Below are positions 14,401-58,006 of a DNA stretch of 64,000 nucleotides, one piece after another. Made by a program: the position numbers and the translations under genes. Within the stretch, counting starts at the first letter, position 1; each line of letters begins with the position of its first letter. Origin of the DNA: a virus; IMG/VR virus record IMGVR_UViG_3300044630_005137, positions 32,001 to 96,000 of that record. One strand, 5' to 3'. The notes under the pieces are model-generated. The model was not told where the DNA came from and did not search any database. It saw nothing but the letters and a program-made list of their open reading frames with translations.

Positions 14401-15943
14401 TATCTGTTATGTCTAAAATAAATCCATCTGAATATTCATCTCCTTCGTTATTGGTAGCTTTTATTTTTAGCTCATAAGATTTATTTGCCGTAAGTCCCGT
14501 AATTGTAGTTGGAGATGTTGTAATCAGTTTATTAAATTGGCCTGTGTCTGATGTGGCGTAAAGACGGTAGGTTGTTACAGACCCGCCATCTCCCTTATTG
14601 CCACCATAGTCCCACAGTGGGTCAAAGTATACAGAGATTGAGGTATTAGAAGCTTTTGTTGCATTAAGAATTACTGGTTTTTCCGCTTTAGTAGATGTAA
14701 GAATTTCGTTTGAAGTTACGCTTGTTAGGGTATAGCCAGCTGAGTTATGAGACCAAATCTTATGAGTAACAAAATACCCTCCATAATTTGCTGCATATGG
14801 GGAGCTAGTAATACTTGTATTTGGCCATGTATCAGACAAAGTGTTCCATGTTACTCCGCCATAATTTCCAGAAGAATTAACGTAAGCATACTGAACTCTA
14901 TAGTAATCAACTGCTTGAGGGTCTAAAAGTGGAGGGCTCCATGTTACAGTAATCTCTGCATTATTATAAGGTCTTCCCGAAGTTTGTGTTGCTACAACAT
15001 TTCTTACTGGTCCTGGCAAAGAAACTCCTGTTGTAAAATCTACTCTCATAAAATCTTGTGTAGGATTGGCTGTTGATGACCAACCATCTTGACATATAAC
15101 TGTAATTTCTGCAGTATACGTTACTCCAGTTTCTAAAAGAGTTGGTTCGTTTATAGTTATAGTTTGCTGATTAATTAACACATCATCGTCATATATAAGC
15201 TCATCAGTTTCATAATCATAAATTCTAATTGTTTGTTTAAATAAATCTTCAACTGGTGAATCTACAACATTTCCATCTAATGTCCAAGAAAACTTAGCTC
15301 CATATGAAGTCTCATTACTTACAGTAAATGTATTTATTATTGGGCCATGCGTCATTCTTGGCATTATTGCTTCTGTTATATATGTACCTTCAAGATTTTG
15401 TGCATTTGTTGCAACATGCTTAGTTCTATATGAGTATCCTTGCCTAACTCTTGATTTTGGTATAGTATATCTATTAGAGGCAAGTGGTGGGAATTGATCT
15501 AAACCATCTGAGGATAAGTATTCATCATAATTTTTTATGTGTGTCTGTATCGCAGACCATGATCCGCCTGGAGGCTTTTCTTGTATTTGAATATTAAAGT
15601 TAATTGGCTCTTCCGCCCAGTATCCACGAGTTGTATACAGCTTAGTATTTGGCTGGAGCATAGGGTTGTCTGGGTCTGTATTAACTGCAACAAGGTACGG
15701 GTATGGAACTAATGGTGCTGGTACAGATAAGGAAGTAAATATTAAATCCCATAGTCCTGCGCCAGCATACCTCCAAGCAGTTTTTATTCTTAGCCAACCA
15801 TCTACAATCCATGGATTTGAGCTCGATGCAGAAGATATGGTATCCGAAATAGAAGCCTTTCTCCATATGCTTTGAATTTTGATCCAGCCATTAATATTAT
15901 GAGAACCGTTATCTACTGCACTTGCTTTTCTCCACCAAGACAT
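11474..15943 (-). CDS. Large tail-tip/fibre protein with multiple Fn3/Ig-like domains and a PP(F/H)F repeat linker
   Basis: Fn3 signatures (PGPVRNV...W.PP...DYYRVQY...HNSAG; duplicated unit; TGLTA..Y...A.N..G); 17 tetrapeptide repeats before the last Fn3; last large gene of the tail-tip block. Confidence 0.8.
11777..11980 (-). repeat. 12-bp coding tandem repeat, 17 x PP(F/H)F, with 60-bp higher-order period
   Basis: Units CCACCGTTCTTC (PPFF) and CCACCACACTTC (PPHF) in the order (F H F F H)x3 + F H. Confidence 0.97.
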
Positions 15944-23681: not shown

Positions 23682-24283
23682 ACTTGCTCCAGGCTTATGT
23701 TAACACTCCAAAAGGGTTGTATGCCTCTTTTTATTACAGTAAAGTCGCATGAGGTAAACATCATATTGTAAGTATATTTATTTGCCAAGAGGCCAGATGA
23801 TTCCTCTATCATATCTACTGGAAATACTGTTGGGTTTAATTTAATTAAAAATGCACCTTGACCAGCTGCGCTTTCATAAAAAGTTTTTAAATCTTCTGCT
23901 CCCCATCCACCATCAACTGTTTCATTTCTAAATGACGGTATCATTGCCCAAGATATGGATAGGTTTAGTTTATCAGCAATAAAATACTTTCTTAATGTTC
24001 CATTTGACATTCTTTGGCTATTTTCAATTCTATTTGTACTTATAGAAAGAGGATCTCTATTGTGCTCTGTAACTCTTCTAAATTTTGTTGCAGTTGTTTT
24101 ATCGCTAGTTGCAAGACCGTTTTTAGCTGCTGTATGAAAATCATATATATTTCCTGGTGCTGGAATATTTACTCCCTTATAATCAAAAGTGTTGTTAGCT
24201 GTATCAATTGCAAGTGGGTCGGGTGCTTGTATATAGAGAATTGATCCCTTTGATAAATTTTGAAACAATGGGCTCTGTGTCAT
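23678..24283 (-). CDS. Distal tail protein-like (Dit position)
   Basis: Directly follows the tape measure; RMSNGTLRKY...W...SVNISLEQV pattern. Confidence 0.6.
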   Translation of the reverse strand: MTQSPLFQNLSKGSILYIQAPDPLAIDTANNTFDYKGVNIPAPGNIYDFHTAAKNGLATSDKTTATKFRRVTEHNRDPLSISTNRIENSQRMSNGTLRKYFIADKLNLSISWAMIPSFRNETVDGGWGAEDLKTFYESAAGQGAFLIKLNPTVFPVDMIEESSGLLANKYTYNMMFTSCDFTVIKRGIQPFWSVNISLEQV

Positions 24284-43237: not shown

Positions 43238-44818
43238 CTAGTTGACTTGTCTTCCATCTCCCTTTGCATTTCTGCCCTCCCCAGATTTATCTGGTGAATT
43301 AGCAGATCTTTCTTGATCACGGGTTCTGCTTTGGGTTGCTTGGGCTTTAATTTCTGCGGCTTGGGCTGCAAGATCGACTGGTACGTCCCCGCCTTCTCTT
43401 GGGACCATGCCCATTCTAACTCTAATTTCATTTGGAGTTATTACCTGGAATCTAAGATATCTTTCATCTATTTTAGACTGTGTGTCCGCATCAGTTAAAC
43501 TTAATTCATTAAATTTAAGTTCTAGGGCATCAGTCATTTCCTGGATTATTTTATTTAATTTCTTTTCTAGGTTTTCCTGTGCTGGTCTGCAAACCTGCTC
43601 TTTAAATGTCTTATCTGCGTCTCTAGCAGCAGCTAAATTAATTCCTGCTGGTGTGCCAATTTTATTAATTGGGACTCTGTGAGCCATCAATATTTCATCT
43701 CGATTTGAATTTCTGTACTTTTCAAAAGAGCCTTCTTGTGCCCCTGCTTCAATTGGCTCCATTTTAAATTCAGTTTTTGAATCTGATGAGTCTGGTGGGA
43801 GTGGAATATACAGGGATCTATGATTTTTTCCTTTAAGCCCAACCTGAAAAAATTCAAGCAATTTACGCTCTGACTCTGGGGAAAGCTTTGCCCCCTTTAC
43901 TGTAATAATATATCTTGGTACCGCTTTATTTTCAAAGTAGTCCAGATTATACTTACCAGCAAATTCATTGCCTGCCATAGCATTTTGTGCAGCAATAATA
44001 TCTGGGATTCCATAATAATTATTTTTTGGAGTGTACTTCTTTAAATGAATAATTTCATTAGGTCTATCCTCTTGGCCAGCAATTGGGTTTACGGTTTCTG
44101 TGTCTCCGAAGTTTCTAAAGAATACTGCCTTACCATATAGAAGCTGTATAAAACCGTCTCTGAGGCGCCTCACACGCATTGTCTTTGAAGGTATATGACC
44201 GATGTACCCTATCTTGCCAGTCGTTGTTCTACCGACCTCCAGATAGCCATTACCAGTAGCCTCTATGTCAGTGTAGAATTTTATAAGTGTTTCTTTAAAT
44301 GTTTCATCTTCGTTGCAATCTTCTAGCCAACGATGTAGGTCTTGCTTAATTCTATTTAGCTTTTTACGTGCTCTTTCTAATTGCTTTTCATCTTCGATAT
44401 CTTCAAGAGTGTCTGTAGTTTTTTTTGATTCAATAAAGTCAAATCCTAAACCTACAATATTAGCAACCTTTGCATTTATTGCTGCGTAGTTGTAAGGTGA
44501 AATTTCATAAATTGTTGAAAGATAGTCTAAGTTGTATTCTGGTTGAATTAAGTCAAATGTTGCGTACCCGCTAACTGCCTGTTGATGTTGAAGTTGCTGG
44601 CTTACAGAACCATCTTTTCCAGTAAAAGCTTTTTGCAAGTCTCTCGATACTTTTCTTCTAAATGAAGCTCCAAGGCCTGAAAGCTTTAATACTTCTTCTG
44701 CATCTATATCAAACAGGTCGTCAGACTTTTGAGTCGTAGGGTTATTAAATCTTACCCAGTCTGCTGCATTTGAAATGTCAATATTTTCGCTAAAAATTTC
44801 GTCTTTAGATTCAATCAT
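43238..44818 (-). CDS. Portal protein
   Basis: TGNGYLEV.R, NEIIH.K, YYG.PD, YFEN.AVP, AHRVP, ITPNEIR motifs. Confidence 0.93.
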   Translation of the reverse strand: MIESKDEIFSENIDISNAADWVRFNNPTTQKSDDLFDIDAEEVLKLSGLGASFRRKVSRDLQKAFTGKDGSVSQQLQHQQAVSGYATFDLIQPEYNLDYLSTIYEISPYNYAAINAKVANIVGLGFDFIESKKTTDTLEDIEDEKQLERARKKLNRIKQDLHRWLEDCNEDETFKETLIKFYTDIEATGNGYLEVGRTTTGKIGYIGHIPSKTMRVRRLRDGFIQLLYGKAVFFRNFGDTETVNPIAGQEDRPNEIIHLKKYTPKNNYYGIPDIIAAQNAMAGNEFAGKYNLDYFENKAVPRYIITVKGAKLSPESERKLLEFFQVGLKGKNHRSLYIPLPPDSSDSKTEFKMEPIEAGAQEGSFEKYRNSNRDEILMAHRVPINKIGTPAGINLAAARDADKTFKEQVCRPAQENLEKKLNKIIQEMTDALELKFNELSLTDADTQSKIDERYLRFQVITPNEIRVRMGMVPREGGDVPVDLAAQAAEIKAQATQSRTRDQERSANSPDKSGEGRNAKGDGRQVN

Positions 44819-45159
44819 TTTTGAGGACCCCTAAGTTTAGCCATCTCTTCCTTGTGAACTCCTATGTCCAACGGATCTGGGGTAAGACCCCATCTTAATC
44901 TTTGCTTCTGGTATTCAAACTCTTCTTCATCAATTTGTCGGCTTCCTTCAATAAATTTAGGCTGGCCTTCTTCAATTCCATAATGAGCAACCGCTTTTGC
45001 TAACAAATCAATTCTTTCTTTATTGCCCAGCATTGATTGTATAGACAAGAAGTTGTTGTCTTCGTCGCCAATCCATCTGCCGTCAGGCATCTCCCAGACA
45101 TAGACTCCTAATCTAGTCTCGCCAGATTTCATTTGAGCGTTAATTCTTTTTATGTCCAT
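44815..45159 (-). CDS. Hypothetical protein upstream of the portal
   Basis: 114 aa; ATGA-coupled to the portal; extended -10 element 8 nt upstream. Confidence 0.65.
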   Translation of the reverse strand: MDIKRINAQMKSGETRLGVYVWEMPDGRWIGDEDNNFLSIQSMLGNKERIDLLAKAVAHYGIEEGQPKFIEGSRQIDEEEFEYQKQRLRWGLTPDPLDIGVHKEEMAKLRGPQK

Positions 45160-45167
45160 AGTTAATT

Positions 45168-45176
45168 ATTTTACCA
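45168..45176 (-). promoter_or_regulatory. Extended -10 promoter TGGTAAAAT
   Basis: Motif copy upstream of the head operon. Confidence 0.65.
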
Positions 45177-45222
45177 TTCTTATATCCATAAGTCCAGCTT
45201 TTTGTCACTCAACCTGACAAAA

Positions 45223-46986
45223 TTATATAATCTGGAACACAACCCTGTCTCTAGAGTAGGTTGAGACTGAGTCTTCTGTCATGCTCATTGACGAACCCCT
45301 CCCAACAGATAAAGTTTTGCCTGTGTAAAGGTCATAATGCTCCTGGTGGCTAACTAATGGGTCTGAGTATAGGGCAATATTCTGATAAAGGTTATCATCA
45401 AGCACACCAGATCTCACTCCTAATAGTTGCTTTCCGTTAAACCAAATTTGTCCACTTATTACAGAATCTGTTTTTATAAGTATATAATTGGGCTCATCTA
45501 TATATAAGTATGAGGATATGTTTGTTGCTGAAGATGCATCTTGCCCATTTATATAGATATTACTAATGTTGGATTTTGATATCACCCCGCCTGCCGCCCA
45601 GGAGAGTGAGGTCTCTGTAGATCCAGGTTTGTTGAATATCAAATGTCCGCTAGACAATGATTTTGGAGTAAATATCATTTCAATATTTCTAACATCATTT
45701 GATGAGTTTATAAAAAATGCTGAAGACTTTGGTCTTATTCCATTATCATAATTTCTAGTTCTAACTGGATATTTATTATTTGATATGTCAAAATCCCAGA
45801 TAGTTCCAGTAGTGGGCTGTGATGTAGACAAGATGCCGCTACCGTTGTGAGAAAACATTTTCTTTTCAGAATGAAAATAAATTTTTAAATAATATAGCTC
45901 TGGAATGTATCTGTCTGAATTAGTTGATGAAAAAACTACTTTAAAATACAATATTTTTTGTGAAGAAAAGCTAGAGCCCTGTGTAAATCCTGGTATAGAT
46001 GATCCATTTACACATATAGTCCATGGGCCAGTCTCGGATGTTTCTGATACATATACCGAAACCCCTTTTGATGCCATCCATTCTATTTTTGAAGATACAT
46101 ATTCATTTGTAATATTTAATACTAAATCTTCTACAAATTCTCCAGTAGTAAATCCTGAATTTAAATACAAACTATTGTTAATTGAGTTGTAAGCCAATGC
46201 CTCATTGTCGTATATAAGATCTTTCCATAATATTTGAACGGGATAAACATATCTGGTCTTTATATCTTGATATCTTTCTGCGCCCCTAAATAGCTCTCCC
46301 AGATCTGGTCCTGGGATTTGCTCATCATTAATTAAAAATAAATTATTGTAGTGAGATAATATTGAATTTGCAGAAAGAGCATATCTATAAACCGCTGGGC
46401 AATCAATTAAAAAATATTGATCTCCTGTGGCTGGGCCACATGACAAGGTTATGCTTGTGTTTGTAAAAGATATTGATATCGTCTTATTTGCAACTAGCAA
46501 TCCGTCTACATACAAACTCATTGAGTCTACTGAATATACACCAACAACATGAATTACTCTATTTGAATTAGGAACAGAGTAATCAACTCTTTCATTTTCT
46601 AATTTAAACACTACATTGCCATTATCCCAATACAAACCAATGCCGTCAGAATCTGCAAATATTGGAGTTACTGATGTTAATGTTTTTGGATGAAACCATG
46701 CCTCGAGGGTAAAATCTTTATCAGAGGTTGAAACGGTTGCAAATCCTCCAGTACCAGTGGTGCCAGAAAAATCTTTTGAAATAGCAAACTGTATTGATTT
46801 AGAGCTATCTATTTTATTTGTGTGTGTGCCACCATCAACTATTGGCATTCCAGATATTCCAATTCCACCTACATACGATCCGTTATTTCCACATCCAGAA
46901 CTATCATAGGCTACAGACCCAGATGTCTCATCTAGCTTCCATAAGCCAGTAGGAGAATCTTTTATTACATCAAGGTAGTAGGACAT
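45223..46986 (-). CDS. LamG/concanavalin-A-like virion protein
   Basis: DSP.GLWKLDETSG..A.DSSG, FTLEAWF, HVVGVY, LYVDG, AVY.YALS...I..HY. Confidence 0.8.
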   Translation of the reverse strand: MSYYLDVIKDSPTGLWKLDETSGSVAYDSSGCGNNGSYVGGIGISGMPIVDGGTHTNKIDSSKSIQFAISKDFSGTTGTGGFATVSTSDKDFTLEAWFHPKTLTSVTPIFADSDGIGLYWDNGNVVFKLENERVDYSVPNSNRVIHVVGVYSVDSMSLYVDGLLVANKTISISFTNTSITLSCGPATGDQYFLIDCPAVYRYALSANSILSHYNNLFLINDEQIPGPDLGELFRGAERYQDIKTRYVYPVQILWKDLIYDNEALAYNSINNSLYLNSGFTTGEFVEDLVLNITNEYVSSKIEWMASKGVSVYVSETSETGPWTICVNGSSIPGFTQGSSFSSQKILYFKVVFSSTNSDRYIPELYYLKIYFHSEKKMFSHNGSGILSTSQPTTGTIWDFDISNNKYPVRTRNYDNGIRPKSSAFFINSSNDVRNIEMIFTPKSLSSGHLIFNKPGSTETSLSWAAGGVISKSNISNIYINGQDASSATNISSYLYIDEPNYILIKTDSVISGQIWFNGKQLLGVRSGVLDDNLYQNIALYSDPLVSHQEHYDLYTGKTLSVGRGSSMSMTEDSVSTYSRDRVVFQII

Positions 46987-47012: not shown

Positions 47013-47558
47013 TTAAACCCAATGACCTATTGCAATGTATCTAGAATTACCATAAGCTGGATCTGCAGATACCTGCATTTCTGATGGGGCTATAATTATG
47101 CTGCCCGCTTCAGGCTTAAACTTAGGCTTTCCAGGTATTAAAATCTCTCCATTTGAAAAAGAATCATTAATGTACATTCTGGCCGTATACTTTCCATTTG
47201 CCCCGCAGTTGTTCTTTACTTGGCCCTCATCATGCTTTCTTACAAAGTACTTCGTGCTTAAGTTAACCTGCTCTTCTATGTTATTAAACAGCCTATATTG
47301 ACTAAAGCAATGATGAAATGTGGCTTTTAGATTATTAATTATAAAAAGACTACGAGTATCTACGGTTTCTGTTTCATTTGAGAAATCAGAAGATATTCTT
47401 TTTTCATAACCATATTCTGTATCGTGCCACTTACTAATTAAGTTGGTTGTATTGTTTTCGCTTTCTTCAAGGAAGCTTATATAATTCCCAATCTCTTGAA
47501 GACAATATGTAAAATAAAATGTCTTTGGTGCAATTTCTTGAAAAACGTACATTGCCAT
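47013..47558 (-). CDS. Degenerate P4H-like 2OG-Fe(II) oxygenase lacking iron ligands
   Basis: Keeps MYINDSFSNGEI, KPEAGSIII.PS and SRY, but has no HxD and no distal His. Confidence 0.7.
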   Translation of the reverse strand: MAMYVFQEIAPKTFYFTYCLQEIGNYISFLEESENNTTNLISKWHDTEYGYEKRISSDFSNETETVDTRSLFIINNLKATFHHCFSQYRLFNNIEEQVNLSTKYFVRKHDEGQVKNNCGANGKYTARMYINDSFSNGEILIPGKPKFKPEAGSIIIAPSEMQVSADPAYGNSRYIAIGHWV

Positions 47559-47570
47559 AATTAACTCTTT

Positions 47571-48287
47571 CTAGTTTGGAATAAAAACGCCATCTACGAA
47601 TTTACCAGTGTTAAGCCAAAACGAAGGAACCATATATTTAGATCCGCCTTTTATAAGGTGTGCTGTATGACTATATGGATCTGTTGAAGGAAAGATTATT
47701 ACGCTTCCAGCCTTCGGCTTAACGTGAAACATAATTCTATCATGATTAAGTGGGCTATCAAAATCTTCTGCAGCGGCATCATCTGTAGAAGTCAATACTC
47801 CATCTTTTACATTAAAAGATATTTCTCCGCCTTCGTAATCATCATTTAAATACATTACCATAGAATACCTAAGTCTTCTATCCCCCTCTTGCTGATCAAA
47901 GTGGGATCCCATAAAAGTTCCAGGCATGTATTTTTTAATTGCTGTATCTGTCATTAAAATTATCTCAGCATCATCACCGATTTTTGAAGCATAATCTTCA
48001 CAGACATTTTTCATACCATCAAATATCTCATTGAAAATATAGTTGCAATCATCTATAACATCTTCGGATATATTTTTTTCTATATCTTCAGAAGACAAAC
48101 ACTTTATTCTTTTGTGTGATCCATAAATGTACATTTGTCCACTACATGCACCCCACTCTTCCCAGGGGGTGATGAAGCTTGAGTATTTATCAGATTCTGT
48201 TGATTCGATTAAATCAACAAGCTTTTTAGGCTCCTTTATAACATCAGTGTAGTAATACACCTTATCAAATAATTCTTCGCTTTTCAT
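47571..48287 (-). CDS. Prolyl-4-hydroxylase-like 2OG-Fe(II) oxygenase
   Basis: HFD...YLNDDYEGGE...KPKAGS..IFPS...SHTA...GSKY. Confidence 0.9.
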   Translation of the reverse strand: MKSEELFDKVYYYTDVIKEPKKLVDLIESTESDKYSSFITPWEEWGACSGQMYIYGSHKRIKCLSSEDIEKNISEDVIDDCNYIFNEIFDGMKNVCEDYASKIGDDAEIILMTDTAIKKYMPGTFMGSHFDQQEGDRRLRYSMVMYLNDDYEGGEISFNVKDGVLTSTDDAAAEDFDSPLNHDRIMFHVKPKAGSVIIFPSTDPYSHTAHLIKGGSKYMVPSFWLNTGKFVDGVFIPN

Positions 48288-48316
48288 ACTTCCTCCTACT
48301 TATAACTTTTGTAATA

Positions 48317-48325
48317 ATTGTACCA
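48317..48325 (-). promoter_or_regulatory. Extended -10 promoter TGGTACAAT, internal to the oxygenase cassette
   Basis: Motif copy upstream of the RBS AGGAGG of 47571-48287. Confidence 0.6.
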
Positions 48326-48332
48326 GATATTG

Positions 48333-49142
48333 TTACTTAAATAAATCTTCTTTATCTGGGTAAACAAACTCTGGCTCCCAATTGGGATCTTGCTTAAACA
48401 AAACATCTTCTCCAGTTGGATCTATCCAAAACATCGGAAGCATGTATTTCCATCCTGATTTTACTTCATGCGCTGTATGACTAAATGGTGAGGGTGATGG
48501 GAATATAACTATGCTACCAGCTTCTGGTTTAATATAGAAGTCGTACAATCCCTCATTAGCAGGATGCATAAGGTCACCCTGCAAAGAAAGTTCTGTGGCA
48601 GTCAAAACTCCTTCTTTTATAGAAAAAGAAAGCTCTCCGCCTTCATAGTCATCATTTGGCCAAACTACTAAAGAATAAAGAAGCCTTGTGTCACCTTCTT
48701 GAGAGTCGTGATGAACTCCCATATAGTTGCCAGCCCTATATCTATGAACACCAAACTGTTCTAATAGGGTAAGTTCTTTATCTATGCCTTGTTCTTTTTT
48801 ATAATCTTCACATACATATCTTATGGCATTAAATAATGGGTCTCTTATTTTAATAAACATTTCTTTTGTTTCTTCAGAAACGTCTTTATCTATGTTATAT
48901 ACATTATTTAATAAACATAATTTTTTATATCCATAAACATATGGGTGCCCCATAGATCTGTTTTCGTCTACATCCCACTGATTCCACGGTGTTAATACAG
49001 GGTATATATCAGGATTATTTTCAGAATCATTTACAAGATCTAGCCATTCTTTTACATTAGGAATAGCATTTCTATAATAATAAACTTGCGGGTGAAGCTC
49101 TTCTCTAATCATTCCGTTTTCTAATACAGTCGTTTTTATCAT
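48333..49142 (-). CDS. Prolyl-4-hydroxylase-like 2OG-Fe(II) oxygenase
   Basis: HHD...NDDYEGGEL...KPEAGS..IFPS...SHTA...GWKY. Confidence 0.9.
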   Translation of the reverse strand: MIKTTVLENGMIREELHPQVYYYRNAIPNVKEWLDLVNDSENNPDIYPVLTPWNQWDVDENRSMGHPYVYGYKKLCLLNNVYNIDKDVSEETKEMFIKIRDPLFNAIRYVCEDYKKEQGIDKELTLLEQFGVHRYRAGNYMGVHHDSQEGDTRLLYSLVVWPNDDYEGGELSFSIKEGVLTATELSLQGDLMHPANEGLYDFYIKPEAGSIVIFPSPSPFSHTAHEVKSGWKYMLPMFWIDPTGEDVLFKQDPNWEPEFVYPDKEDLFK

Positions 49143-49891
49143 TCTATCTCCAATGCTACTTCTTTTTTAGCAGTTTGATCTGGTCCAGGCTTTAGTCTTT
49201 CACCTCTTGCTTTAAGTTCTGCCCAAAGCTCTGCGTCCTCTGCCTGTCTTTTTCTTTGATCTGCTATATCGGTTTCCCACATAGCCTGCTTTTCTTCGCT
49301 ATAAACAGCCTCTTCATTATCCCAAAATGATCCTATAGTTATTCTTGTTCCTTTAGTAATCATTTGTACTTCATGTATATTGTGATGACCTCCAGCAAAT
49401 GCTGCTAGCATTCCAGTTTTTGGCTGCAAAGAAATATCATGATCTCTAAAGTTTAAAACGCCACCTTCAAAATCATCATTTAAATAAAGAAATGCTGCCC
49501 ACTTGCTTCTTTCAAAAGAATTATACTCTGGTGAGTCTATTGGTGTATTGTCTGAATGATAACCAGCGTATGCTCCCTCTACCCATTTTTGTGCATGATA
49601 GCTAACTAGTCTAACTTTATCACCTCTACATATCTCTGTAGCTTCCTGTATTTTATCTTGAAGTGTAATAAAAAAATCAGGCGATAAACCAAACTTTTCT
49701 TTATCTTCATCGTCTGGCAAGTTAGATGCAAATGAGTCATAAAATGATATTGGTGCCCACGGAAGAGTTCCTTTTTCTACAGAATGTTCCCAGTATTTAA
49801 TAACTTTTTCGCAATCTTCTGGACTAAGAAAGTTTTCAAAAAACACTATGTCTTCTTTAATTCTATTTTGATTTTCTAAATTAAATGTCAT
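49139..49891 (-). CDS. Prolyl-hydroxylase-like 2OG-Fe(II) oxygenase
   Basis: HSD...YLNDDFEGG.L...HEV...GTR. Confidence 0.9.
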   Translation of the reverse strand: MTFNLENQNRIKEDIVFFENFLSPEDCEKVIKYWEHSVEKGTLPWAPISFYDSFASNLPDDEDKEKFGLSPDFFITLQDKIQEATEICRGDKVRLVSYHAQKWVEGAYAGYHSDNTPIDSPEYNSFERSKWAAFLYLNDDFEGGVLNFRDHDISLQPKTGMLAAFAGGHHNIHEVQMITKGTRITIGSFWDNEEAVYSEEKQAMWETDIADQRKRQAEDAELWAELKARGERLKPGPDQTAKKEVALEIE

Positions 49892-50735
49892 TTAAATTAA
49901 TCCTTTCTAGCTTTTTAAGTTCATCATAGTTTATTGTTTGATAAGCTCCAGACTTTCTTTCTTCTTTAGTTCTGGCAATTTCCATTTCTTTCCATATCTC
50001 TTTACCATAAAGCTTTTCGTTTTCTAGCCATTCTTTCGAGCCAGGATAAAATCTTACCCAATGATTTCTTACAAAATATTTAGGTGTGCCCTTTACCTTT
50101 TCAACTCCATGCATATAGAATTGACCAGCATCAGAAAGGAAATCTGGGTCTCCTGCTGGGAACAAAAGTACATCACCCTTTTCTGGCTTGTAATAGAATG
50201 TTTTGTTGTCTACCAAGAATGTCAGGCCACCGCCTTCGTAATCTCCATTTAAATACATTGTACATGTAAATGTAAACTTGTATCCTCTAAAGTCATGATA
50301 ATCTCTCTGATAGTCTGTGTGTACATGCATAGCGAGATCGGACTCTTCTATACCGCCTTCAACTTCATACTTGCATATAGAAGGACCCATTCTTTTCCAT
50401 AGTTGAGTTAGAGATCCTTCTTCTTCATTAAAAACTTCAGCATCACGATCAATTGGTACACCAAATGTTTCTGCATACTGATTTGTTGTTTTATCAAATA
50501 CTTCAATTAGCTCTTCCCAGCAAAGTCTTTCTAGTGATGTTCTTTCAGAAGATTCAACAGAGTTGTCAAACTGATCCGCCTCTTTGCCAAAAGTATACCA
50601 ACCATGCCAATTTAAAGCAGATCCTTCTGGGTTCTTTTCAGAATCCATAATTGTTTTTGTTAACAAATCAATATCTTTCCAGGGATTTTTGAATACCCAT
50701 ATTTTTGGGTATATCTCTCTATATTTAAGTGTCAT
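49881..50735 (-). CDS. Prolyl-4-hydroxylase-like 2OG-Fe(II) oxygenase
   Basis: HTD...YLNGDYEGG.L...KPEKGD..LFP...HGV...PKY. Confidence 0.9.
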   Translation of the reverse strand: MTLKYREIYPKIWVFKNPWKDIDLLTKTIMDSEKNPEGSALNWHGWYTFGKEADQFDNSVESSERTSLERLCWEELIEVFDKTTNQYAETFGVPIDRDAEVFNEEEGSLTQLWKRMGPSICKYEVEGGIEESDLAMHVHTDYQRDYHDFRGYKFTFTCTMYLNGDYEGGGLTFLVDNKTFYYKPEKGDVLLFPAGDPDFLSDAGQFYMHGVEKVKGTPKYFVRNHWVRFYPGSKEWLENEKLYGKEIWKEMEIARTKEERKSGAYQTINYDELKKLERINLNDI

Positions 50736-51421
50736 GGCTTTATATCACCAGTATGCTCAAGTATCTGCCAAAAGAATGGTGACGTATATCTTCCTCCAGA
50801 AATAATTGGTCTAACTCCGTGAATATAACCTTTATCACCTGGGAAAAAGTATGCTGATCCGCCAACGGGTTTAAATTCTATTCCTTGAACAGGGAAAAAC
50901 AATTCTCCTCCTTCGTAATCATCGTTAAAATAAAATAATGAAGCGATATCGTAATGAGGAAAATCATTAGGTGTACCTGCGTCTGGGCCTTCATGCAGCT
51001 CTTTGTCTGCATGAGGATCTTGTCTTGATCCTACAGGCCATCTAACAATTGCTGGTCCTGTAGCCTGAACCTTTACATTAAAAAACTTTTCTACCTCTAC
51101 TTGCAGTCTTGATATAAGATTATCAACAACATATACAATATCTGGATCTGCGGAAATTTCCATAGATTTACGTGTGCAAACTCTATCGAACCATGCGTTT
51201 GCATCATAGATTACTGTACCATTTTCATTTACGTGAGAATCAGTAATATCCCATGTTTTATTGGTTTTTGCAAAGTTGGTGAGTCTTGTTCTTTCTTGGT
51301 CTGTTAAAAAGTTTTTTAGCTCTACAATATTTTCTGGACCTGTGCCAAAAAAGCCAGATGGTGTTATGGACCCTAGAGATCTGTAGTCATGAGTGTTATT
51401 AGTATTTAATCTTTGTTCCAT
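50732..51421 (-). CDS. Prolyl-hydroxylase-like 2OG-Fe(II) oxygenase
   Basis: HAD...YFNDDYEGGEL...HGV...GRY; start moved to ATG 51421 (MEQRL). Confidence 0.9.
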   Translation of the reverse strand: MEQRLNTNNTHDYRSLGSITPSGFFGTGPENIVELKNFLTDQERTRLTNFAKTNKTWDITDSHVNENGTVIYDANAWFDRVCTRKSMEISADPDIVYVVDNLISRLQVEVEKFFNVKVQATGPAIVRWPVGSRQDPHADKELHEGPDAGTPNDFPHYDIASLFYFNDDYEGGELFFPVQGIEFKPVGGSAYFFPGDKGYIHGVRPIISGGRYTSPFFWQILEHTGDIKP

Positions 51422-51422
51422 A

Positions 51423-52142
51423 TTATTTATACTTCCTTCTTGTCCAAAATCTTTTTTTATAGACTCCACCTTCTGGTGTTCTAAAAATTTCTGATGTTTC
51501 CATTGCTTTTTGCATAATATCAATTGGCTTATGAAATATCAACTCTGATTCCCAGTCTTCCCTTTTAAATGGTATTATCTGCAAATATGGTGTTCCTGCA
51601 GGTACAATCCCAGCAAATCCATTTTTTATAAAAAATGGTATTAATCCAGATGTTGTAACCTTATCACTGTCTATTATACCACCGACTGTAAGCCAAGGTA
51701 AGTCAAAATGATTTATCGGCTGTATGTATAAGGAGCTATATCCTTCTGGAAGCTGTGGAGCCCAATTGGCATACCAATGAAAATGATTTTTTTCATAACC
51801 AGGAGGAACTTGAAATCCAGTAGACTCTGGTCTTTCTCCTACAAAATCATCAAATTTTAAAGGCACCTTTGCTTTTATCCTATTGTTTTTTTCATAAAAT
51901 TCTATGTCGCATGGGGTTACAAGTGTATATCCAGATGTAAATGTATCTAGCATGGCTGGACATGCTTTAAAGTTTAGCATTTTGCCGCCGTCTTTATTTG
52001 CATTAGAAACTGGATTCCCATAAAAATCTTTTATATATATGTCAGCATCTTGCCACCACTTAGGAATAACTCTTGCAGCTGGGCATGGAGCGGTTTCGAC
52101 ATCATTGTAATGCTTGTTTGAATGAAATATTATTTTGTTCAT
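51423..52142 (-). CDS. Uncharacterised dUTPase-fold-like protein (DUF6065-related)
   Basis: KACPA..D....GY....PCDI, GIIDSD and GTP..QIIPFKRE resemble dUTPase-like beta-clip motifs. Confidence 0.55.
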   Translation of the reverse strand: MNKIIFHSNKHYNDVETAPCPAARVIPKWWQDADIYIKDFYGNPVSNANKDGGKMLNFKACPAMLDTFTSGYTLVTPCDIEFYEKNNRIKAKVPLKFDDFVGERPESTGFQVPPGYEKNHFHWYANWAPQLPEGYSSLYIQPINHFDLPWLTVGGIIDSDKVTTSGLIPFFIKNGFAGIVPAGTPYLQIIPFKREDWESELIFHKPIDIMQKAMETSEIFRTPEGGVYKKRFWTRRKYK

Positions 52143-52873
52143 TGGGGTATTCCACAGCCTTCTGGTCCAGTTAAAGAAGTTTCATCATTTTTTAATCGTA
52201 ACGATTTTACTTCATGAGATCCTATTTTATTGTTTTTATGGTCTACAGCATTTCTGTAAAAATCAGTCCACTTTCCAGATTTATTAATATCGCTAACAAT
52301 TTTGCCATAGTCTTCTTTTGGAAAAAAATCTATTGGTAAATCCTTATATCCTTTTATTGTTGCTACTGAATTGTTTAAATTAGATAAAGATATTGGGATA
52401 ATTGATGCAACTGGAGTATTTGCTGGAATAGTAATAACTTCATTGGCCTTTGTTATTCTCCATGCAATTGGAAAAGTGCCTTTAAAAAACGAAGTGCTTA
52501 TTAGTGTTGTAAAAGGCCAAACACCATCTATTGGCCAGTTTGGTGTTGGCATTGCTAGCATGCTTACATTTTCTTCAGTTTTTATAACTAAATTTGTATT
52601 AAAGCTAATTGTTGCATTGGCTCTTGATGTTGAAACGTAATCCTTACCTTTTAAAACTTTAACGTGAGTGTCTGTTGAATCTGATATGCCGTCCCAAATA
52701 AATTCAATATCTACTGGAAAAGAAACTCCCCATCCCAAGGTATTTGAAAGGCTTACTGGAAAACAATGATAGGCATGCTTATCAGATGTTTCATCCATCC
52801 ATTCTCTTTTTACTCCTAGAGGCTGAATATCTGCTGATTGATTTGGATAAACTTTGTATACATCAAAGTTCAT
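52139..52873 (-). CDS. DUF6065-like protein
   Basis: REWMD.T..KHAY.C.P....N..GW motif, recognised from memory as DUF6065. Confidence 0.65.
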   Translation of the reverse strand: MNFDVYKVYPNQSADIQPLGVKREWMDETSDKHAYHCFPVSLSNTLGWGVSFPVDIEFIWDGISDSTDTHVKVLKGKDYVSTSRANATISFNTNLVIKTEENVSMLAMPTPNWPIDGVWPFTTLISTSFFKGTFPIAWRITKANEVITIPANTPVASIIPISLSNLNNSVATIKGYKDLPIDFFPKEDYGKIVSDINKSGKWTDFYRNAVDHKNNKIGSHEVKSLRLKNDETSLTGPEGCGIPQ

Positions 52874-53514
52874 CAGTACCCATCTTTCATTGATTTATCA
52901 GACATAAACTGTCTATAAAAAGACTCTGTATGAGTTGCATCGTTATAATCTGTCATAGTAACAATTGAATATTTTAGTCCAGATTTTACTGGAAGGGCGG
53001 CATGAGAGAACAAATATGTAGATGGGAATATATACAGATCTCCAGCCTTTGGCTTAATAGTTAAATCCAGTTTATCAAATCTTAATCCGCCTTCTTCATA
53101 ATCATCATTAATATAAGCAACCATTGATACTGTTGATATATATGACCAACCATGATCTGAATGATAAGAGAAATGTTGACCTTCTCCATATTTAATAAAA
53201 TTCATTGCTTCCCAATATTTTAATTCAATATTGTAAAAAGAAGAATAATCATTTAATGCAATTGCCTGTGCATCATAAACATCTTGCCAAATTGCATCTA
53301 CTTCTTGATTGTATTTATCAGGAATATGGTTTTCAAATTTTTTCCATTTAAAGTCTACACAGTCTCTATAGTCAGGCATTTTTTCTCTATATCCGACGGT
53401 TGCTTCTTTCCAAGTATGCATTCCTTTAGAATCAAGTATTGCACTTTCAAGCCTGTTGATTATATCCATTTCTGGAGTAATTACATTTCTATAAACCCAA
53501 AGTCCTGGGAACAA
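52873..53514 (-). CDS. Prolyl-4-hydroxylase-like 2OG-Fe(II) oxygenase (start uncertain)
   Basis: HSD...YINDDYEEGGL...KPKAGD..IFPS...SHAA.PV..GLKY. Confidence 0.9.
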   Translation of the reverse strand: MFPGLWVYRNVITPEMDIINRLESAILDSKGMHTWKEATVGYREKMPDYRDCVDFKWKKFENHIPDKYNQEVDAIWQDVYDAQAIALNDYSSFYNIELKYWEAMNFIKYGEGQHFSYHSDHGWSYISTVSMVAYINDDYEEGGLRFDKLDLTIKPKAGDLYIFPSTYLFSHAALPVKSGLKYSIVTMTDYNDATHTESFYRQFMSDKSMKDGY

Positions 53515-53521
53515 CTCTTCT

Positions 53522-53764
53522 TTATTGTAAATTTTCTTTTCCCCATTTTCCTACAGGACATTCAGCTTCGGCAAGTTGAACTTTGATTGGCATAATACAA
53601 TTACATTTTGAACATTGTGTAGTTTTTAAATAAAATTCGCAGCCTTTACAAATACTTAATCTATTTTCAGCAATCTTATTGTCTGAAACATGCCTATTGG
53701 GATCAAATATGTGCCATGGGCGTGTGTCACCTACGGCTTTTTTCCATTCTTCCCATTTAGACAT
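53522..53764 (-). CDS. Small Cys-rich protein (DUF6171-like)
   Basis: RLSICKGC...QCSKCNC.M..K......CP.GKW; start at ATG 53764, TAATG-coupled to the upstream gene. Confidence 0.7.
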   Translation of the reverse strand: MSKWEEWKKAVGDTRPWHIFDPNRHVSDNKIAENRLSICKGCEFYLKTTQCSKCNCIMPIKVQLAEAECPVGKWGKENLQ

Positions 53765-54252
53765 TATGCTGTGTAGGTAAAGTTTGTGCCGTCCCAAATG
53801 TAACCAACTGTTACGCTTGCGTCTTGATCTATTTTTTTCAATGTTACATTTCCAGAAAATGCAGCTTCAAACTTTTCATCAAGTATGCTGCCTTTGATTG
53901 GAGCCATCATAAAAAATACTTTATTGTTGCATAACAAAGTATATCCAGAAAGAATTGATGTTCCATCTATAGAAGAATATCTTACCCCAGACTCCCCTTC
54001 AGTTCCTATAAATTCTTCTGGAATAGGATTTGGCAATGTAAAATTTAATCCATCCCATGTACTACCAATTAATAATCCAGGCTTTTCATTTGCTGCTTGG
54101 CCAACAATAGTGTAACCAGAGTTTAGGGCTTCATCAATCCTGCTAACTCTTTCTAAAGATTCTGGCGTTTCGTCTGAAACTCTAATAACATGAAAAACTT
54201 CATAGTTGTTATTATCAATTTCAACTAACATAGCGTATTTATGTACAGTCAT
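53764..54252 (-). CDS. Protein with two internal IG.xWDGxxF units (fibre-associated hypothetical)
   Basis: LIGSTWDGLNF and TVGYIWDGTNF end two similar halves; RBS AAGGAG. Confidence 0.65.
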   Translation of the reverse strand: MTVHKYAMLVEIDNNNYEVFHVIRVSDETPESLERVSRIDEALNSGYTIVGQAANEKPGLLIGSTWDGLNFTLPNPIPEEFIGTEGESGVRYSSIDGTSILSGYTLLCNNKVFFMMAPIKGSILDEKFEAAFSGNVTLKKIDQDASVTVGYIWDGTNFTYTA

Positions 54253-54279
54253 TTAATCTCCTTAATTATTATATAGTAC

Positions 54280-54309
54280 ATTTTACTATATATTTAATAT
54301 TATTGTCAA
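54280..54309 (-). promoter_or_regulatory. Sigma70/SigA-type promoter heading the oxygenase cassette
   Basis: TTGACA-18 nt-TAAAAT, with a second TATAAT at 54268-54273. Confidence 0.65.
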
Positions 54310-54321
54310 TAGCGGTACTAT

Positions 54322-55395
54322 TTAGAACTCGCATTGACATCCTCCAGTATAGAATCCAGACCATCCTGATCCGTATACTGCGGCACAGTTTCCACCGCAA
54401 CCTCCGCCAACAAAGTGTGGTGGGAAGAATGGTGGGAAGAATGGTGGGAAGTGTGGTGGGAAGAACGGTGGGAAGTGTGGTGGGAAGAACGGTGGGAAGA
54501 ACGGTGGGAAGAATGGTGGGAAGAACGGTGGGAAATGTGGAGGGAAGAACGGTGGGAAGTGTGGTGGGAAGAACGGTGGGAAGAACGGTGGGAAGAACGG
54601 TGGGAAGAACGGTGGGAAGTGTGGTGGGAAGAACGGTGGGAAGTGTGGTGGGAAGAACGGTGGGAAGAATGGTGGGAAGTGTGGTGGGAAGAACGGTGGG
54701 AAGTGTGGTGGGAAGAACGGTGGGAAGAACGGTGGGAAGTGTGGTGGGAAGAACGGTGGGAAGAACGGTGGGAAGTGTGGAGGTGTAAATGTTTCTACAG
54801 TTCCAGTTGTTGTACCTAAAGATTGTCCATTTGCATTTGATGCGTAAACAGTATAAGTTTCAGAGTTTGGAGATGCTGTATCAAATGGAGATGTTGCTGC
54901 TGAGGATAAAGATCCCCGAATACTAGAAGTAATTTGAAAAGTAGTTATTGCGCTTCCACCAGTAGCATTTGCAGAAAAAGTAATTCTGTCATTTCCAGAA
55001 GCTGGGACTGGGCTTGGCCCAGGGGTACTTGTTGAAACAGTTGCACTTGGAGCTTGTGGAACTGTGGTGGCAGTTATTGATCCAGATGTTGTTGCTTGAG
55101 ATGAGCCAGCAGCGTTAGAGGCAACAACTGTAAATGTATATGCCGTTGCACTTAATAATCCTGTAAAGGTATAACTAGTACTAGAAGTAGTTTGTGTTGT
55201 TGTTGCTGGGGTTGATGTAATGGTATAAAGTGTTGCTGGGGGTGATGCGGCTGGCAAAGACCATGTAAGAGATGCTGCGCCATTATTATATGCCCGCCCA
55301 GTACCCACATTTGTTGCAGTTAAGGAAGTAACTGCACTTGGTTCTAAGAAATTATCCTGTGCTGAGGATTTTCTACCTATTTTCTTATTTGCCAT
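54322..55395 (-). CDS. Fn3-domain protein with 31 x PP(F/H)F repeats and a Cys/Gly-rich C-terminal peptide
   Basis: Two Fn3-like domains ([20 protein letters not shown]; TVYASNANG), the repeat, then [29 protein letters not shown]. Confidence 0.85.
54412..54783 (-). repeat. 12-bp coding tandem repeat, 31 x PP(F/H)F
   Basis: 372 bp, built from the same two DNA units as 11777-11980 with a few synonymous variants. Confidence 0.97.
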
Positions 55396-55423: not shown

Positions 55424-58006
55424 TTATGCTGTCAAGTCTCCAGCTAGCAACCAAGTATTTATCGCTACCTTGGTAAGTGTTGCTGATGAATGTGTTGTTC
55501 TTAGTGTTAATCCTGGTGTGCGAAGAATTGTAACTGTACCATCTGCTGCTACAAAGTTTGCGCCAGTTCCTGATGCTTGGTAAAAATCAATTGATGTACC
55601 AATTGGGAAGGCTGTTGTTGCATTTGTTGGTATTGTAATTGCTCGTGCACCTGCAATTGGGATAAGCTGATCTCTTAGAGCAAGGCCACCTGTTGATAGG
55701 TTATATGCTGCTGAGATTTCAGTTCCAATTGTTGTAAGTGATGGGACACCAGCTTTTGTTTGAGTTCCATCTGTAAATGCTACTCCTGCTGCGGCAACTG
55801 TCACTGTACCAGTAAATGTTGGTGAGGCAAGTGGTGCTTTTAGGCCAAGACTTGTTGTTACAGATGTAGCAAAGTTTGCGTCATCTCCAAGTGCTGCAGC
55901 AAGTTCATCAAGTGTGTTAAGTGCTGCTGGAGCAGATGCAATTACTGCATTTACTTGTGCTGTTGCATCTGCAATTGCTTCTGCCTTAGCAGTTGCAATT
56001 GCTGAAGCCTGTGCTGTAGATACTGGTTTTGCTGTATCAGCTGTATTGTCAACAGATCCAAGCCCAACCATAGTTTTTGTAATTCCTGATACTGTACCAG
56101 TAAATGTTGGTGAGGCAATTGGGGCTTTTGCAGCAAGATCGGATGTGAGGCCTGAAATCTTAGACTGGGCAATTCCTGCTGAAGCGTTAATATCTCCATC
56201 TACGATTGTTCCGTTTGCAATCTTAGCTGAAGTTACTGCGCCATCTGCAATCTTTGATTCAGTAACTGAATCAACTGCAAGTTCTGAGCTAGTTACCGAT
56301 GCTGCAATAATTTCTGCAGTTCCAACTGAATCATCTGACATCATTGATTGAGTAATTGTATTTGCAGGAAGTGTTACTGTTCCTGTAAATGTTGGGGAAG
56401 CAAGTGGTGCTTTGGTATCAATTTGAGTCTGAATAGATGATGTTACTCCATCAAGGTAACCAATTTCAACATCTGAAACGTTGGCAACAACTGGCTGCTT
56501 AGTATTTAATTGAGTTTGAATTGCTGATGTTACTCCATCAAGGTAGCCAATTTCAACATCTGAAACGTTAGCTACAACTGCCTGCTTGGCATCTAGTTGT
56601 ATTTGAAGACCAGAAGTTACTCCGTTTAGGTAACCTATTTCTAGGTTGCTAACATCACCGATTGAGGTTGATCCTGGAAGTGTTACATTTCCAGTAAATG
56701 TTGGTGCTGCAAGTGGTGCGTAAGTTGAAGCAGCTGTTGCTGATGCTAACTTAGCATCAATTTGCCCCTGAATACCAGAGGTTACTCCGTTAACATATGC
56801 CAACTCAACGTTGCTGACATCACCGATTGAGGTTGTTGCTGGAAGAGTTACTGTGCCAGTTAGTGTCGGTGAAGCAAGTGGTGCGTAAGTTGAAGCAGCA
56901 ATTGTAGTTTCCAGCTTTGCATCAATTTGTCCCTGAATACCAGATGTTACTCCGTTTAGATACCCTATTTCTAGGTTGCTAACATCACCGATTGAAGTTG
57001 ATCCTGGAAGTGTTACTGTGCCAGTTAGTGTCGGTGAAGCAAGTGGTGCTTTAGCATCTAGCTGTACTTGAACACCAGAAGTTACTCCGTTTATGTATCC
57101 TAACTCAACGTTGCTGACATCACCGATTGAGGTTGTTGCTGGAAGAGTTACGTTTCCAGTGAATGTTGGTGATGCTAATGGAGCCTTTAAGCTAAGAGCA
57201 GTTGTAACAGTTCCTGCAAAATTTGCGTCATCATTAAGAGCTGCTGCTAATTCGTTTAATGTATTAAGCGATTCTGGTGAAGCAGATGTAAGTATACTTA
57301 CAGCTGCATCCGCATAAGCTTCAGCTTGAGTTTTTGCTGTTGCGATTGCTGTAGCAGTTGCGGTTGAAACAGGCTTATTTAAATCAGTTGTATTGTCAAC
57401 ATTTGCAAGGCCCACATCTGACTTAGTAATTCCAGTAGGGGTATTTATTACTGGAGATGTAAGAGTCTTATTTGTAAGAGTTTGTGATCCTGTTGTAGTT
57501 GCAAGGATGCTTGTATCCGCAATACCGTGAACAGATGTTGTATCTGCTTCATGTGTTGCAATTGCGGCTGAGATGGCTTCTGTTGCTGAAATAACTTTCC
57601 AGTTACCATCAGTGCTTGCAGGTGATGCAGACAAAACATATGTTGTTCCAGTATCTGACTGAATTGCAATGTCTCCAGATTCTGCTGTTAATGCTAATCT
57701 TGCTGCCTGGTTTGCAACAGCACTAACTGTTACTTTGGCAAGTGGGGGAAGTTGTGCTGAAGGGATAAATCCTGATGAATCCAGTGAAGCAACACCATTT
57801 GCAACACCTTTTGTACTTAAAAGAATATAATCGTCTACTGTTTGTGAGAGAGCATAACTTAGTGAGTTCCAAGCAGTGCTTCCATCTCCAAATTTAAATG
57901 TATTAGTATCTGTTTCAATACCAATTTCTCCAGCTGCTAGGGTTGGATTTGCTGCGACCCATTGAGCTTCTGTGCCTCTTCTTAACTGCAATCTTACTGT
58001 TGCCAT
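55424..58006 (-). CDS. Tail fibre protein (Mtd_N/hyaluronidase-type N-terminus, repeated shaft)
   Basis: RLQLRRGT.AQW.AANP.LA.GEIG.ETDT..FKFGDG; KAPLASPTFTG and SNVE.GY..GVTS..Q.Q.D repeats; C-terminus ...TWLLAGDL. Confidence 0.85.
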   Translation of the reverse strand: MATVRLQLRRGTEAQWVAANPTLAAGEIGIETDTNTFKFGDGSTAWNSLSYALSQTVDDYILLSTKGVANGVASLDSSGFIPSAQLPPLAKVTVSAVANQAARLALTAESGDIAIQSDTGTTYVLSASPASTDGNWKVISATEAISAAIATHEADTTSVHGIADTSILATTTGSQTLTNKTLTSPVINTPTGITKSDVGLANVDNTTDLNKPVSTATATAIATAKTQAEAYADAAVSILTSASPESLNTLNELAAALNDDANFAGTVTTALSLKAPLASPTFTGNVTLPATTSIGDVSNVELGYINGVTSGVQVQLDAKAPLASPTLTGTVTLPGSTSIGDVSNLEIGYLNGVTSGIQGQIDAKLETTIAASTYAPLASPTLTGTVTLPATTSIGDVSNVELAYVNGVTSGIQGQIDAKLASATAASTYAPLAAPTFTGNVTLPGSTSIGDVSNLEIGYLNGVTSGLQIQLDAKQAVVANVSDVEIGYLDGVTSAIQTQLNTKQPVVANVSDVEIGYLDGVTSSIQTQIDTKAPLASPTFTGTVTLPANTITQSMMSDDSVGTAEIIAASVTSSELAVDSVTESKIADGAVTSAKIANGTIVDGDINASAGIAQSKISGLTSDLAAKAPIASPTFTGTVSGITKTMVGLGSVDNTADTAKPVSTAQASAIATAKAEAIADATAQVNAVIASAPAALNTLDELAAALGDDANFATSVTTSLGLKAPLASPTFTGTVTVAAAGVAFTDGTQTKAGVPSLTTIGTEISAAYNLSTGGLALRDQLIPIAGARAITIPTNATTAFPIGTSIDFYQASGTGANFVAADGTVTILRTPGLTLRTTHSSATLTKVAINTWLLAGDLTA

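Follow-up and report, generated by a model that had tools for sequence, protein, structure and literature searches.

A proline/aromatic tract protein co-inherited with a cassette of prolyl-hydroxylase-like oxygenases in uncultured actinobacterial phages

Oxygenase arrays in phages and related viral systems

Since at least 2010, genes for 2-oxoglutarate (2OG)- and Fe(II)-dependent oxygenases have been catalogued in multiple copies in cyanophages and other aquatic phages; their substrate is unknown, and DNA repair, control of 2OG levels and metabolite synthesis have been proposed (PMC3037559, PMC2938197). The array gp41–gp54 of cyanophage Syn9 has ten dioxygenases in tandem, a pair of Trp halogenases and one protein of dUTPase fold in which a Cys is conserved; for this array, the authors proposed secondary-metabolite synthesis, not virion modification (PMC2938197; Iyer, Abhiman, de Souza, Aravind, Nucleic Acids Res 2010). 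The locus described here lies in a stretch of 64,000 nucleotides, hereafter the window, which corresponds to bases 32001–96000 of the 106-kb IMG/VR record IMGVR_UViG_3300044630_005137, estimated to be 91% complete. In this window, a protein holding a long PP(F/H)F repeat tract is encoded next to a cassette of six intact oxygenases that resemble prolyl 4-hydroxylases (P4H) and prolyl hydroxylase domain (PHD) enzymes, together with two DUF6065-like proteins.

Chlorovirus PBCV-1, in work reportedly done by Eriksson et al. in 1999, is said to encode a P4H plus short Pro-rich tandem-repeat proteins that serve as its substrates. In the phages studied here, the tract gene and the oxygenase/DUF6065 cassette constitute a conserved, co-inherited unit. 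This genomic association, which is strong and broad, is undescribed in the literature searched, and a search on PPFF/PPHF repeats and hydroxyproline in phage fibres returned nothing relevant. Hydroxylation of the tract by the cassette, with proline as the likeliest target, appears to be the best reading of the genomic link between tract and enzymes and of the predicted model of one oxygenase (ox52873), which is nearest to protein prolyl hydroxylases; it is put forward tentatively, with slightly less than an even chance of being right.

Structure of the locus

The tract gene and the cassette are encoded on one strand, with intergenic gaps ranging from -101 to +69 nt. The genes are, in window coordinates and in the direction of reading:

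54322–55395, minus: fibronectin type III (Fn3) protein with PP(F/H)F tract and Cys-rich tail, 357 aa; proposed substrate or adhesin-like protein (PF00041, E 3.5e-9)
54412–54783, minus: DNA encoding the 31 x PP(F/H)F tract of that protein (residues 205–328)
53764–54252, minus: small protein with two WDG motifs, 162 aa (phrog_14370, E 5.7e-7; no Pfam match)
53522–53797, minus: DUF6171-like six-Cys protein, 91 aa (PF19668, E 8.7e-6, 26.5 bits, against a cut-off of 27 bits; phrog_13558, E 3.6e-14)
52873–53514, minus: oxygenase ox52873, 213 aa (PF13640, E 3.7e-12)
52139–52873, minus: DUF6065 protein, 244 aa (PF19541, E 2.4e-33, 116 bits against a cut-off of 26.6)
51423–52142, minus: DUF6065 paralogue, 239 aa (phrog_7084, E 7.9e-31)
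50732–51523, minus: oxygenase ox50732, listed open reading frame (PF13640; HxD...H motif)
49881–50735, minus: oxygenase ox49881, 284 aa (PF13640; HxD...H motif)
49139–49891, minus: oxygenase ox49139, 250 aa, with Arg at the 2OG-binding position (PF13640; alignment)
48333–49142, minus: oxygenase ox48333, 269 aa (PF13640; alignment)
47571–48287, minus: oxygenase ox47571, 238 aa (PF13640; alignment)
47013–47558, minus: degenerate oxygenase paralogue, 181 aa (BLASTP against ox47571, E 2e-8, 23% identity)

The reading frames of ox52873 and the DUF6065 gene overlap by 1 nt, and those of the DUF6065 gene and its paralogue by 4 nt. The listed TTG start of ox50732 gives an overlap of 101 nt with the upstream gene; since its orthologues are 229 aa long, the true start is probably the ATG at 51421, which yields a protein of that length. 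Reading frames and domain matches bear out the anatomy given in the original prediction, which was made by reading the bare letters: an Fn3 protein with 31 PP(F/H)F units and 50% Pro, six intact and one degenerate oxygenase, two DUF6065-like proteins, a WDG protein and a Cys-rich protein.

The tract consists of exactly 31 units, 20 of them PPFF and 11 PPHF, so that its 124 residues include 62 Pro (50%), 51 Phe and 11 His; it is followed by a tail of 29 aa with four Cys. At the DNA level, Tandem Repeats Finder places the array at 54413–54780. An N-terminal motif of this protein, [11 protein letters not shown], is kept across relatives. As had also been claimed, the same repeat occurs in a second protein 42 kb away:

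11474–15943, minus: second tract protein, 1489 aa, in the tail-gene region (17 x PP(F/H)F at residues 1322–1389, DNA 11777–11980)

In this second protein, a C-terminal segment of about 100 aa comes after the tract, and orthologues were found in only 2 relatives. The two tracts of the genome are 98% identical in DNA over 206 bp, and the number of units is 24, 30, 31, 33 or 36 among phages whose DUF6065 proteins are 92–99% identical (the window compared with L025, L048, L029 and L043; L- and G-numbers are labels of the related loci and genomes compared). Taken together, these two observations indicate from sequence comparison that the tract expands and contracts quickly, and the two loci may recombine with each other.

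Among described systems, the Syn9 array is the nearest to this locus, which resembles it in three respects: its classical 2OG-Fe(II) dioxygenases are numerous, diverged and arranged in tandem (here six intact), it includes a dUTPase-fold protein with a conserved Cys (here Cys37 of DUF6065), and it comes directly after tail-fibre genes, a position checked in Syn9 itself. The two differ in that Syn9 carries its halogenases and a JmjC (MINA-like) member inside the array, and neither is found in the cassette. A phmmer comparison of the window oxygenases and DUF6065 with the Syn9 proteins gave no similarity at E <= 0.01.

Co-inheritance of tract and cassette

Co-occurrence of PPxF repeats with oxygenases and DUF6065 across genomes had been put forward as a check of the original prediction, and it has been found in the form of a co-inherited, neighbouring unit. 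When [12 protein letters not shown] was back-translated and used as a search pattern, IMG/VR yielded more than 115 stretches, a number that is a lower bound. The recurrence of the same coding pattern in so many independent stretches shows that the tract is neither a chance feature nor an assembly artefact. Nearly all of these loci with enough DNA have oxygenases beside the tract gene; most loci that lack adjoining enzymes either sit where a contig stops or are a second tract gene belonging to the same phages. The common order starts with fibre and tract gene, followed by WDG and DUF6171 genes where present, and then by ox52873, DUF6065, more oxygenases, LamG and portal; the WDG gene is found in some relatives only, and a 52873-like gene comes after the tract gene in most related loci. 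The reverse search, from DUF6065, recovered at least 585 relatives; among the best 80, which were retained, a gene with a Pro/aromatic tract is located immediately upstream of ox52873 in nearly all loci that reach far enough.

A second order (fibre, short tract protein, ox50732-like, ox52873-like, DUF6065) is seen in phages whose portal is 24% identical to that of the window and whose DUF6065 is 23–30% identical, including a complete 140-kb genome with terminal repeats. In this lineage, the fusion partner of that same PPFF/PPHF tract is not Fn3 but a PASTA-like or other small domain. Because the N-terminal domain is swapped in this way (Fn3, PASTA), the constant neighbour of the oxygenases is the tract, and not one orthologous protein.

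Further evidence comes from relatives chosen by portal similarity alone (74–100% identity), which comprise 46 distinct portals. The cassette of the window is flanked by the following genes, so that it stands between fibre genes and portal, as had been stated:

55424–58006, minus: tail-fibre protein, 860 aa, with an Mtd_N N-terminus and repeated APLASPTFTG-type units (PF18454, E 5.7e-16; many tail-fibre PHROGs); upstream of the tract gene
43238–46986, minus: LamG-domain protein, small protein and portal (PF04860); context, downstream of the cassette

Among the 46 distinct portals, the states were distributed as follows:

cassette and tract: 15
neither: 17
oxygenases without an aromatic tract (L349): 1
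tract without oxygenases: 0

Portal relatives with a cassette upstream of LamG have a tract gene wherever the DNA reaches, and cassette-less ones have unrelated Gly-rich fibre genes in its place and no tract. The state of the cassette needs 8 changes on the tree of 46 portals and 6 on a tree of 38, where four or more fall on well-supported branches. Five cassette-less relatives (35–72% complete, 289 kb together) gave no oxygenase match and no tract in their whole records, while this genome and four complete cassette-bearing genomes hold 7–14 oxygenase matches and 1–2 tract genes each. Of 25 records whose tract locus lacks a nearby oxygenase, 19 have oxygenases elsewhere and the other six are at most 38% complete; among the complete genomes examined, the tract never occurs without oxygenases.

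The same region holds another candidate substrate. The oxygenases might modify other virion proteins, such as the Mtd_N fibre, whose APLASPTFTG repeats contain Pro; in that case the tract protein would be merely part of the same fibre module. A fibre homologue does precede the tract gene in most related loci, its tandem units do bear Pro, and the predicted enzyme fold described below points to protein substrates. However, Mtd_N-type fibre homologues are present in L234, L235 and L249, which have neither oxygenases nor tracts, and this makes the fibre a weaker candidate than the tract, which is not seen without the enzymes. Modification of the fibre or of another virion protein instead of the tract is thus considered improbable.

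Predicted activity of the oxygenases

The six intact oxygenases match PF13640 with 28.4–47.5 bits (gathering cut-off 27), and all of them hold the HxD...H iron triad as well as a Lys or Arg about 10 residues past the distal His, at the position that binds 2OG. The degenerate paralogue at 47013–47558 has no Pfam match, and in the alignment both the HxD motif and the distal His are missing. A comparison with NCBIfam gave sub-threshold PRK05467 (PiuC-like) matches only. The other intact paralogues are 22–26% identical to ox52873, which is the top scorer of the six against both PF13640 and phrog_61; across 19 orthologues of ox52873, H118, D120, H171 and K181 never vary.

That the enzymes are prolyl-hydroxylase-like (P4H/PHD), as originally claimed, agrees with their motifs and, for ox52873, with the predicted fold too. 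Its sequence weakly matches Bacillus anthracis P4H and collagen lysyl hydroxylase LH3 (E 2e-4 to 6e-3). The predicted model (mean predicted local distance difference test score, pLDDT, 82.5) is a double-stranded beta-helix nearest to protein prolyl hydroxylases; this fold evidence covers ox52873 alone among the paralogues. The structural matches of the model were:

Trichoplax PHD: Z 19.8
Pseudomonas PPHD (EF-Tu hydroxylase): Z 19.3
PBCV-1 vCPH (5c5t): Z 17.9
Dictyostelium PhyA (6t8m): Z 16.9
PHD2: Z 16.9
Chlamydomonas P4H (CrP4H): Z 16.1
AlkB-like/AlkB-type and small-molecule enzymes: Z 12–15

For the top prolyl hydroxylases, the root-mean-square deviation (rmsd) is 2.3–3.0 Å over 156–183 residues. 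The modelled fold of ox52873 fits a protein-proline substrate, short of proof.

These matches allow a comparison with three systems of protein hydroxylation. The PBCV-1 enzyme vCPH is close to the model (rmsd 2.5 Å over 160 residues), but PBCV-1 is a virus of a eukaryotic host with one enzyme and PAPK-type repeats, while the present system, known from sequence alone, combines six or seven paralogues and DUF6065 with an aromatic PPxF tract in a phage of bacteria. Mimivirus L230 (6ax6, Z 14.5) and the animal collagen P4H and lysyl hydroxylases share with the proposal made here the hydroxylation of a repetitive fibre protein, in the former case by a virus; the differences are the lack of Gly-X-Y repeats in these phages and of any fusion of the enzymes to a glycosyltransferase.

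The third system is the Skp1 pathway of Dictyostelium and Toxoplasma, formed by PhyA and Gnt1. PF11397 is the family of the Skp1-hydroxyproline N-acetylglucosamine (GlcNAc) transferase Gnt1. Likenesses are the PHD-type fold and the presence of a PF11397 gene (E 2e-19) in the genome; however, the Skp1 pathway modifies one proline of one protein and not a polymer, and the PF11397 gene lies about 60 kb from the cassette. This gene is missing from the complete cassette-bearing genomes G015, G017 and G005, and distant homologues are present in the cassette-less G010 and G013. The idea of a stalk glycosylated in the manner of extensins and other hydroxyproline-rich glycoproteins, which formed part of the original prediction, is therefore not upheld, as the PF11397 gene is not co-distributed with the cassette.

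Comparison with arrays proposed to tailor metabolites

The main competing explanation is that the cassette is an array of the Syn9 type, devoted to making or tailoring a small molecule, glycan or free peptide or to modifying host proteins, and that it shares a hypervariable fibre-region island with the tract, so that their link is physical and not functional. The published Syn9 array, with its metabolite proposal (PMC2938197), is not accompanied by a Pro/Phe tract protein, either within it or nearby, as checked in Syn9. The genome studied here encodes a Trp halogenase (genome 22132–23655, outside the window; PF04820, E 2e-103) that is homologous to Syn9 gp41/42 (E 7e-53), together with a short-chain dehydrogenase/reductase (SDR), two glycosyltransferases and a weak JmjC/cupin match at genome 2141–2680. 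Five more P4H-like oxygenases are found outside the cassette, in non-structural regions.

Related loci add to this picture. In L349 and L237, one or two oxygenases and DUF6065 paralogues are accompanied by an SDR or epimerase and by a glycosyltransferase-like or methylase-like gene, with no aromatic tract. In L152, L153, L157 and L169, a related cassette (DUF6065 55–60% identical) with an SDR is found not among fibre genes but among small, early-type, non-structural repeated genes of the 'NWNLRYA' type, and no tract was seen in the available DNA, although these fragments are 5–38% complete and the absence is uninformative.

All these observations weigh to some degree against hydroxylation of the tract, and three further points have to be set beside them. 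The number of phylogenetically independent pairs is only 3–4; all of them are concordant, and the sign test gives p 0.125–0.25. Given that tract and cassette are adjacent, exchange of DNA in one block could by itself produce joint gain and loss. Finally, one repeat variant, FCPFFPN/FCPAFCP, holds single prolines.

Nevertheless, a merely physical link does not easily account for the absence of tracts without oxygenases from complete genomes, or for an adjacency that outlasts swaps of both the N-terminal domain and the repeat unit and extends to lineages with 24% portal identity. In addition, the best matches of the ox52873 model are protein prolyl hydroxylases and not small-molecule enzymes, and the Trp halogenase and the PF11397 glycosyltransferase lie 58–60 kb away from the cassette; neither of these two genes, nor the SDR or the GT2 gene, is co-distributed with it. 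On balance, an array of the Syn9 type is regarded as less likely than hydroxylation of the tract, while being the strongest of the alternatives.

Variation of the tract and its C-terminal end

Units of the tract in relatives include [25 protein letters not shown] and the FCPFFPN unit mentioned above, and drift has gone as far as FFAPPG and FFSPPL, with the tract gene still just upstream of ox52873; a PPDFTPA unit is seen in the portal-selected locus L266. What the units have in common is Pro, mostly with one or two aromatic residues after it. The His-free FFxPPx class (FFAPPG/FFSPPL) keeps genes similar to ox52873, ox50732, ox49881, ox49139 and ox47571. The retention of the same enzymes by His-free loci argues against a paralogue specialised for His, and the original assignment of individual paralogues to Pro1, Pro2, His or Phe is not supported.

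The tract proteins of the group are multidomain proteins of 150–1489 aa. In L168, L170, L173, L174, L176, L179, L183–L186, L189, L156 and L266, the tract is directly followed by a Hint/bacterial intein-like (BIL) domain that makes up the C-terminal 150–170 aa or so. Cys1 of this domain is invariant in 13 sequences, and a profile of it matches only inteins and the BIL domain 2lwy in the PDB (E 4e-6 to 7e-6), Pfam matches being below the cut-off. For the relatives that bear it, these sequence features imply that the C-terminal end of the tract would be a site of self-cleavage or thioester chemistry.

The 357-aa protein of the window has its Cys-rich tail where relatives have the Hint domain. In deduplicated loci, a DUF6171 gene lies within 1.5 kb after the tract gene in 21/22 cases when the tract protein ends in a Cys-rich tail, against 11/52 for short tails and 1/31 for other endings, counts that are uncorrected for kinship. 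The 21/22 co-occurrence suggests that the Cys-rich tail and DUF6171 may work together.

These C-terminal ends also bear on the alternative, raised in the original prediction, of a precursor of ribosomally synthesised and post-translationally modified peptides (RiPP) with multiple cores, which would be cut into short Pro/Phe peptides tailored by the oxygenases. The perfectly repeated short unit beside many enzymes of tailoring type speaks for such a system. However, the tract stands behind folded Fn3 or PASTA domains, or internally in the case of the 1489-aa protein, within large proteins of structural type; there are no cleavage motifs between units, and in many relatives what follows the tract is a Cys-rich tail or a self-processing Hint domain, either of which points to a large protein. 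Moreover, no cassette gene matches a peptidase, cyclase or transporter family in Pfam. A RiPP-like precursor is accordingly given very little credence, far less than any other explanation considered here.

As a separate observation, L266:5949–7133 encodes a protein with PASTA, Fn3, (PPDFTPA)5 and Hint within a cassette. The DFTP in its unit presumably matches the residues around the proline that PhyA hydroxylates in Dictyostelium Skp1, a resemblance taken as a lead only.

DUF6065 proteins

DUF6065 and its paralogue are 21% identical in the alignment, and the paralogue is tied to DUF6065 solely through phrog_7084, which both of them match. Cys37 of DUF6065 is nearly invariant in the family alignment. 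A dUTPase fold had been foreseen for this protein, and its AlphaFold model (pLDDT 77) does match trimeric dUTPases in Foldseek, with a template modelling (TM) score of 0.6–0.74 normalised on the target and about 10% identity. A prediction of the complex between ox52873 and DUF6065, which are translationally coupled neighbours, gave a score of 0.00 and has no bearing on binding either way. In 185,579 prokaryote genomes, one strict pattern for DUF6065 found only 3 loci, all in metagenome-assembled genomes, a count too dependent on that pattern to be informative, and the matches in the ESM Atlas are confined to its own, mostly viral, family.

Proposed role of the module

The explanation preferred here, for which the chance as a whole is again judged a little below even, is that the system is an accessory module of the fibre region of uncultured actinobacterial phages. 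One or two adhesin-like proteins would carry an N-terminal Fn3 or PASTA binding domain and, towards the C-terminus, a hydrophobic tract of PPxF type, and a battery of P4H/PHD-like oxygenases would be produced with them, the dUTPase-fold DUF6065 proteins being encoded within this battery. Late in infection, the oxygenases would hydroxylate residues of the tract, most likely prolines, and the presence of several diverged paralogues might reflect different positions or register, or different tract-bearing proteins. In this way, an otherwise insoluble (PPFF)n polymer would become a soluble, stiff and extended spacer that could present the binding domain on the virion.

A wider version of this proposal, which is held to be more doubtful than the previous one, regards the P4H-like oxygenase arrays of many aquatic phages as virion-tailoring enzymes. 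In the present case, the paralogues would jointly hydroxylate the PPxF polymer to give a new kind of modified stalk or adhesin on the fibre apparatus, DUF6065 would act as a non-catalytic or a novel catalytic partner, and the polymer would be fixed at its C-terminal end by the Hint domain, or by the Cys-rich tail together with DUF6171.

The oxygenases of these phages come with a linked, co-inherited and chemically plausible polypeptide substrate, which can easily be synthesised as (PPFF)n or (PPHF)n, so that the substrate question becomes directly testable. If the proposal is correct, this would be, to our knowledge, the first prolyl (or other) hydroxylation of a structural protein of a bacteriophage; it would also represent a new kind of repeat polymer, and a role would be suggested for DUF6065.

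Genomic setting

The GC content of the window is about 38%. The assignment of this uncultured phage to an actinobacterial host group is based on its portal, which is 56.7% identical to those of Streptomyces cluster BE siphoviruses such as Genie2, on a WhiB protein encoded in the genome (PF02467, E 8e-12) and on the PASTA–tract fusions of its relatives. The trio of LamG, small protein and portal is kept in Streptomyces phages without the cassette (Genie2), and in Genie2 nothing similar to the cassette is found upstream of it, which indicates that the block of fibre, tract and oxygenases is an insertion specific to the uncultured low-GC relatives. Searches against 50,697 phage records, by megablast with the block and by tblastn with DUF6065, gave zero matches, and cultured relatives are reached via the portal only, these being the cassette-less Streptomyces cluster BE phages.

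The island upstream of LamG holds other gene sets too (L349:900–7850, L237:2000–7500, L351:1386–4840). In L351, a short PVTP tract that is not aromatic and has a Cys tail is found along with DUF6171 and a single oxygenase.

A scan for promoters and terminators gave site counts equal to those of shuffled sequence. Within this shuffled-level background, one promoter-like site near consensus (TTGACA, 18-nt spacer, TAAAAT) is located at 54280–54309 on the minus strand, within the 69 nt that separate the tract gene from the cassette.

Outside the window, the Trp halogenase, the gene of the PF11397 GlcNAc-transferase family and the SDR adjoin a putative terminase (genome 22132–25535, L320:2132–5535). 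Inside it, an open reading frame of 3890 aa at 24283–35955 occupies the position of the tape measure gene.

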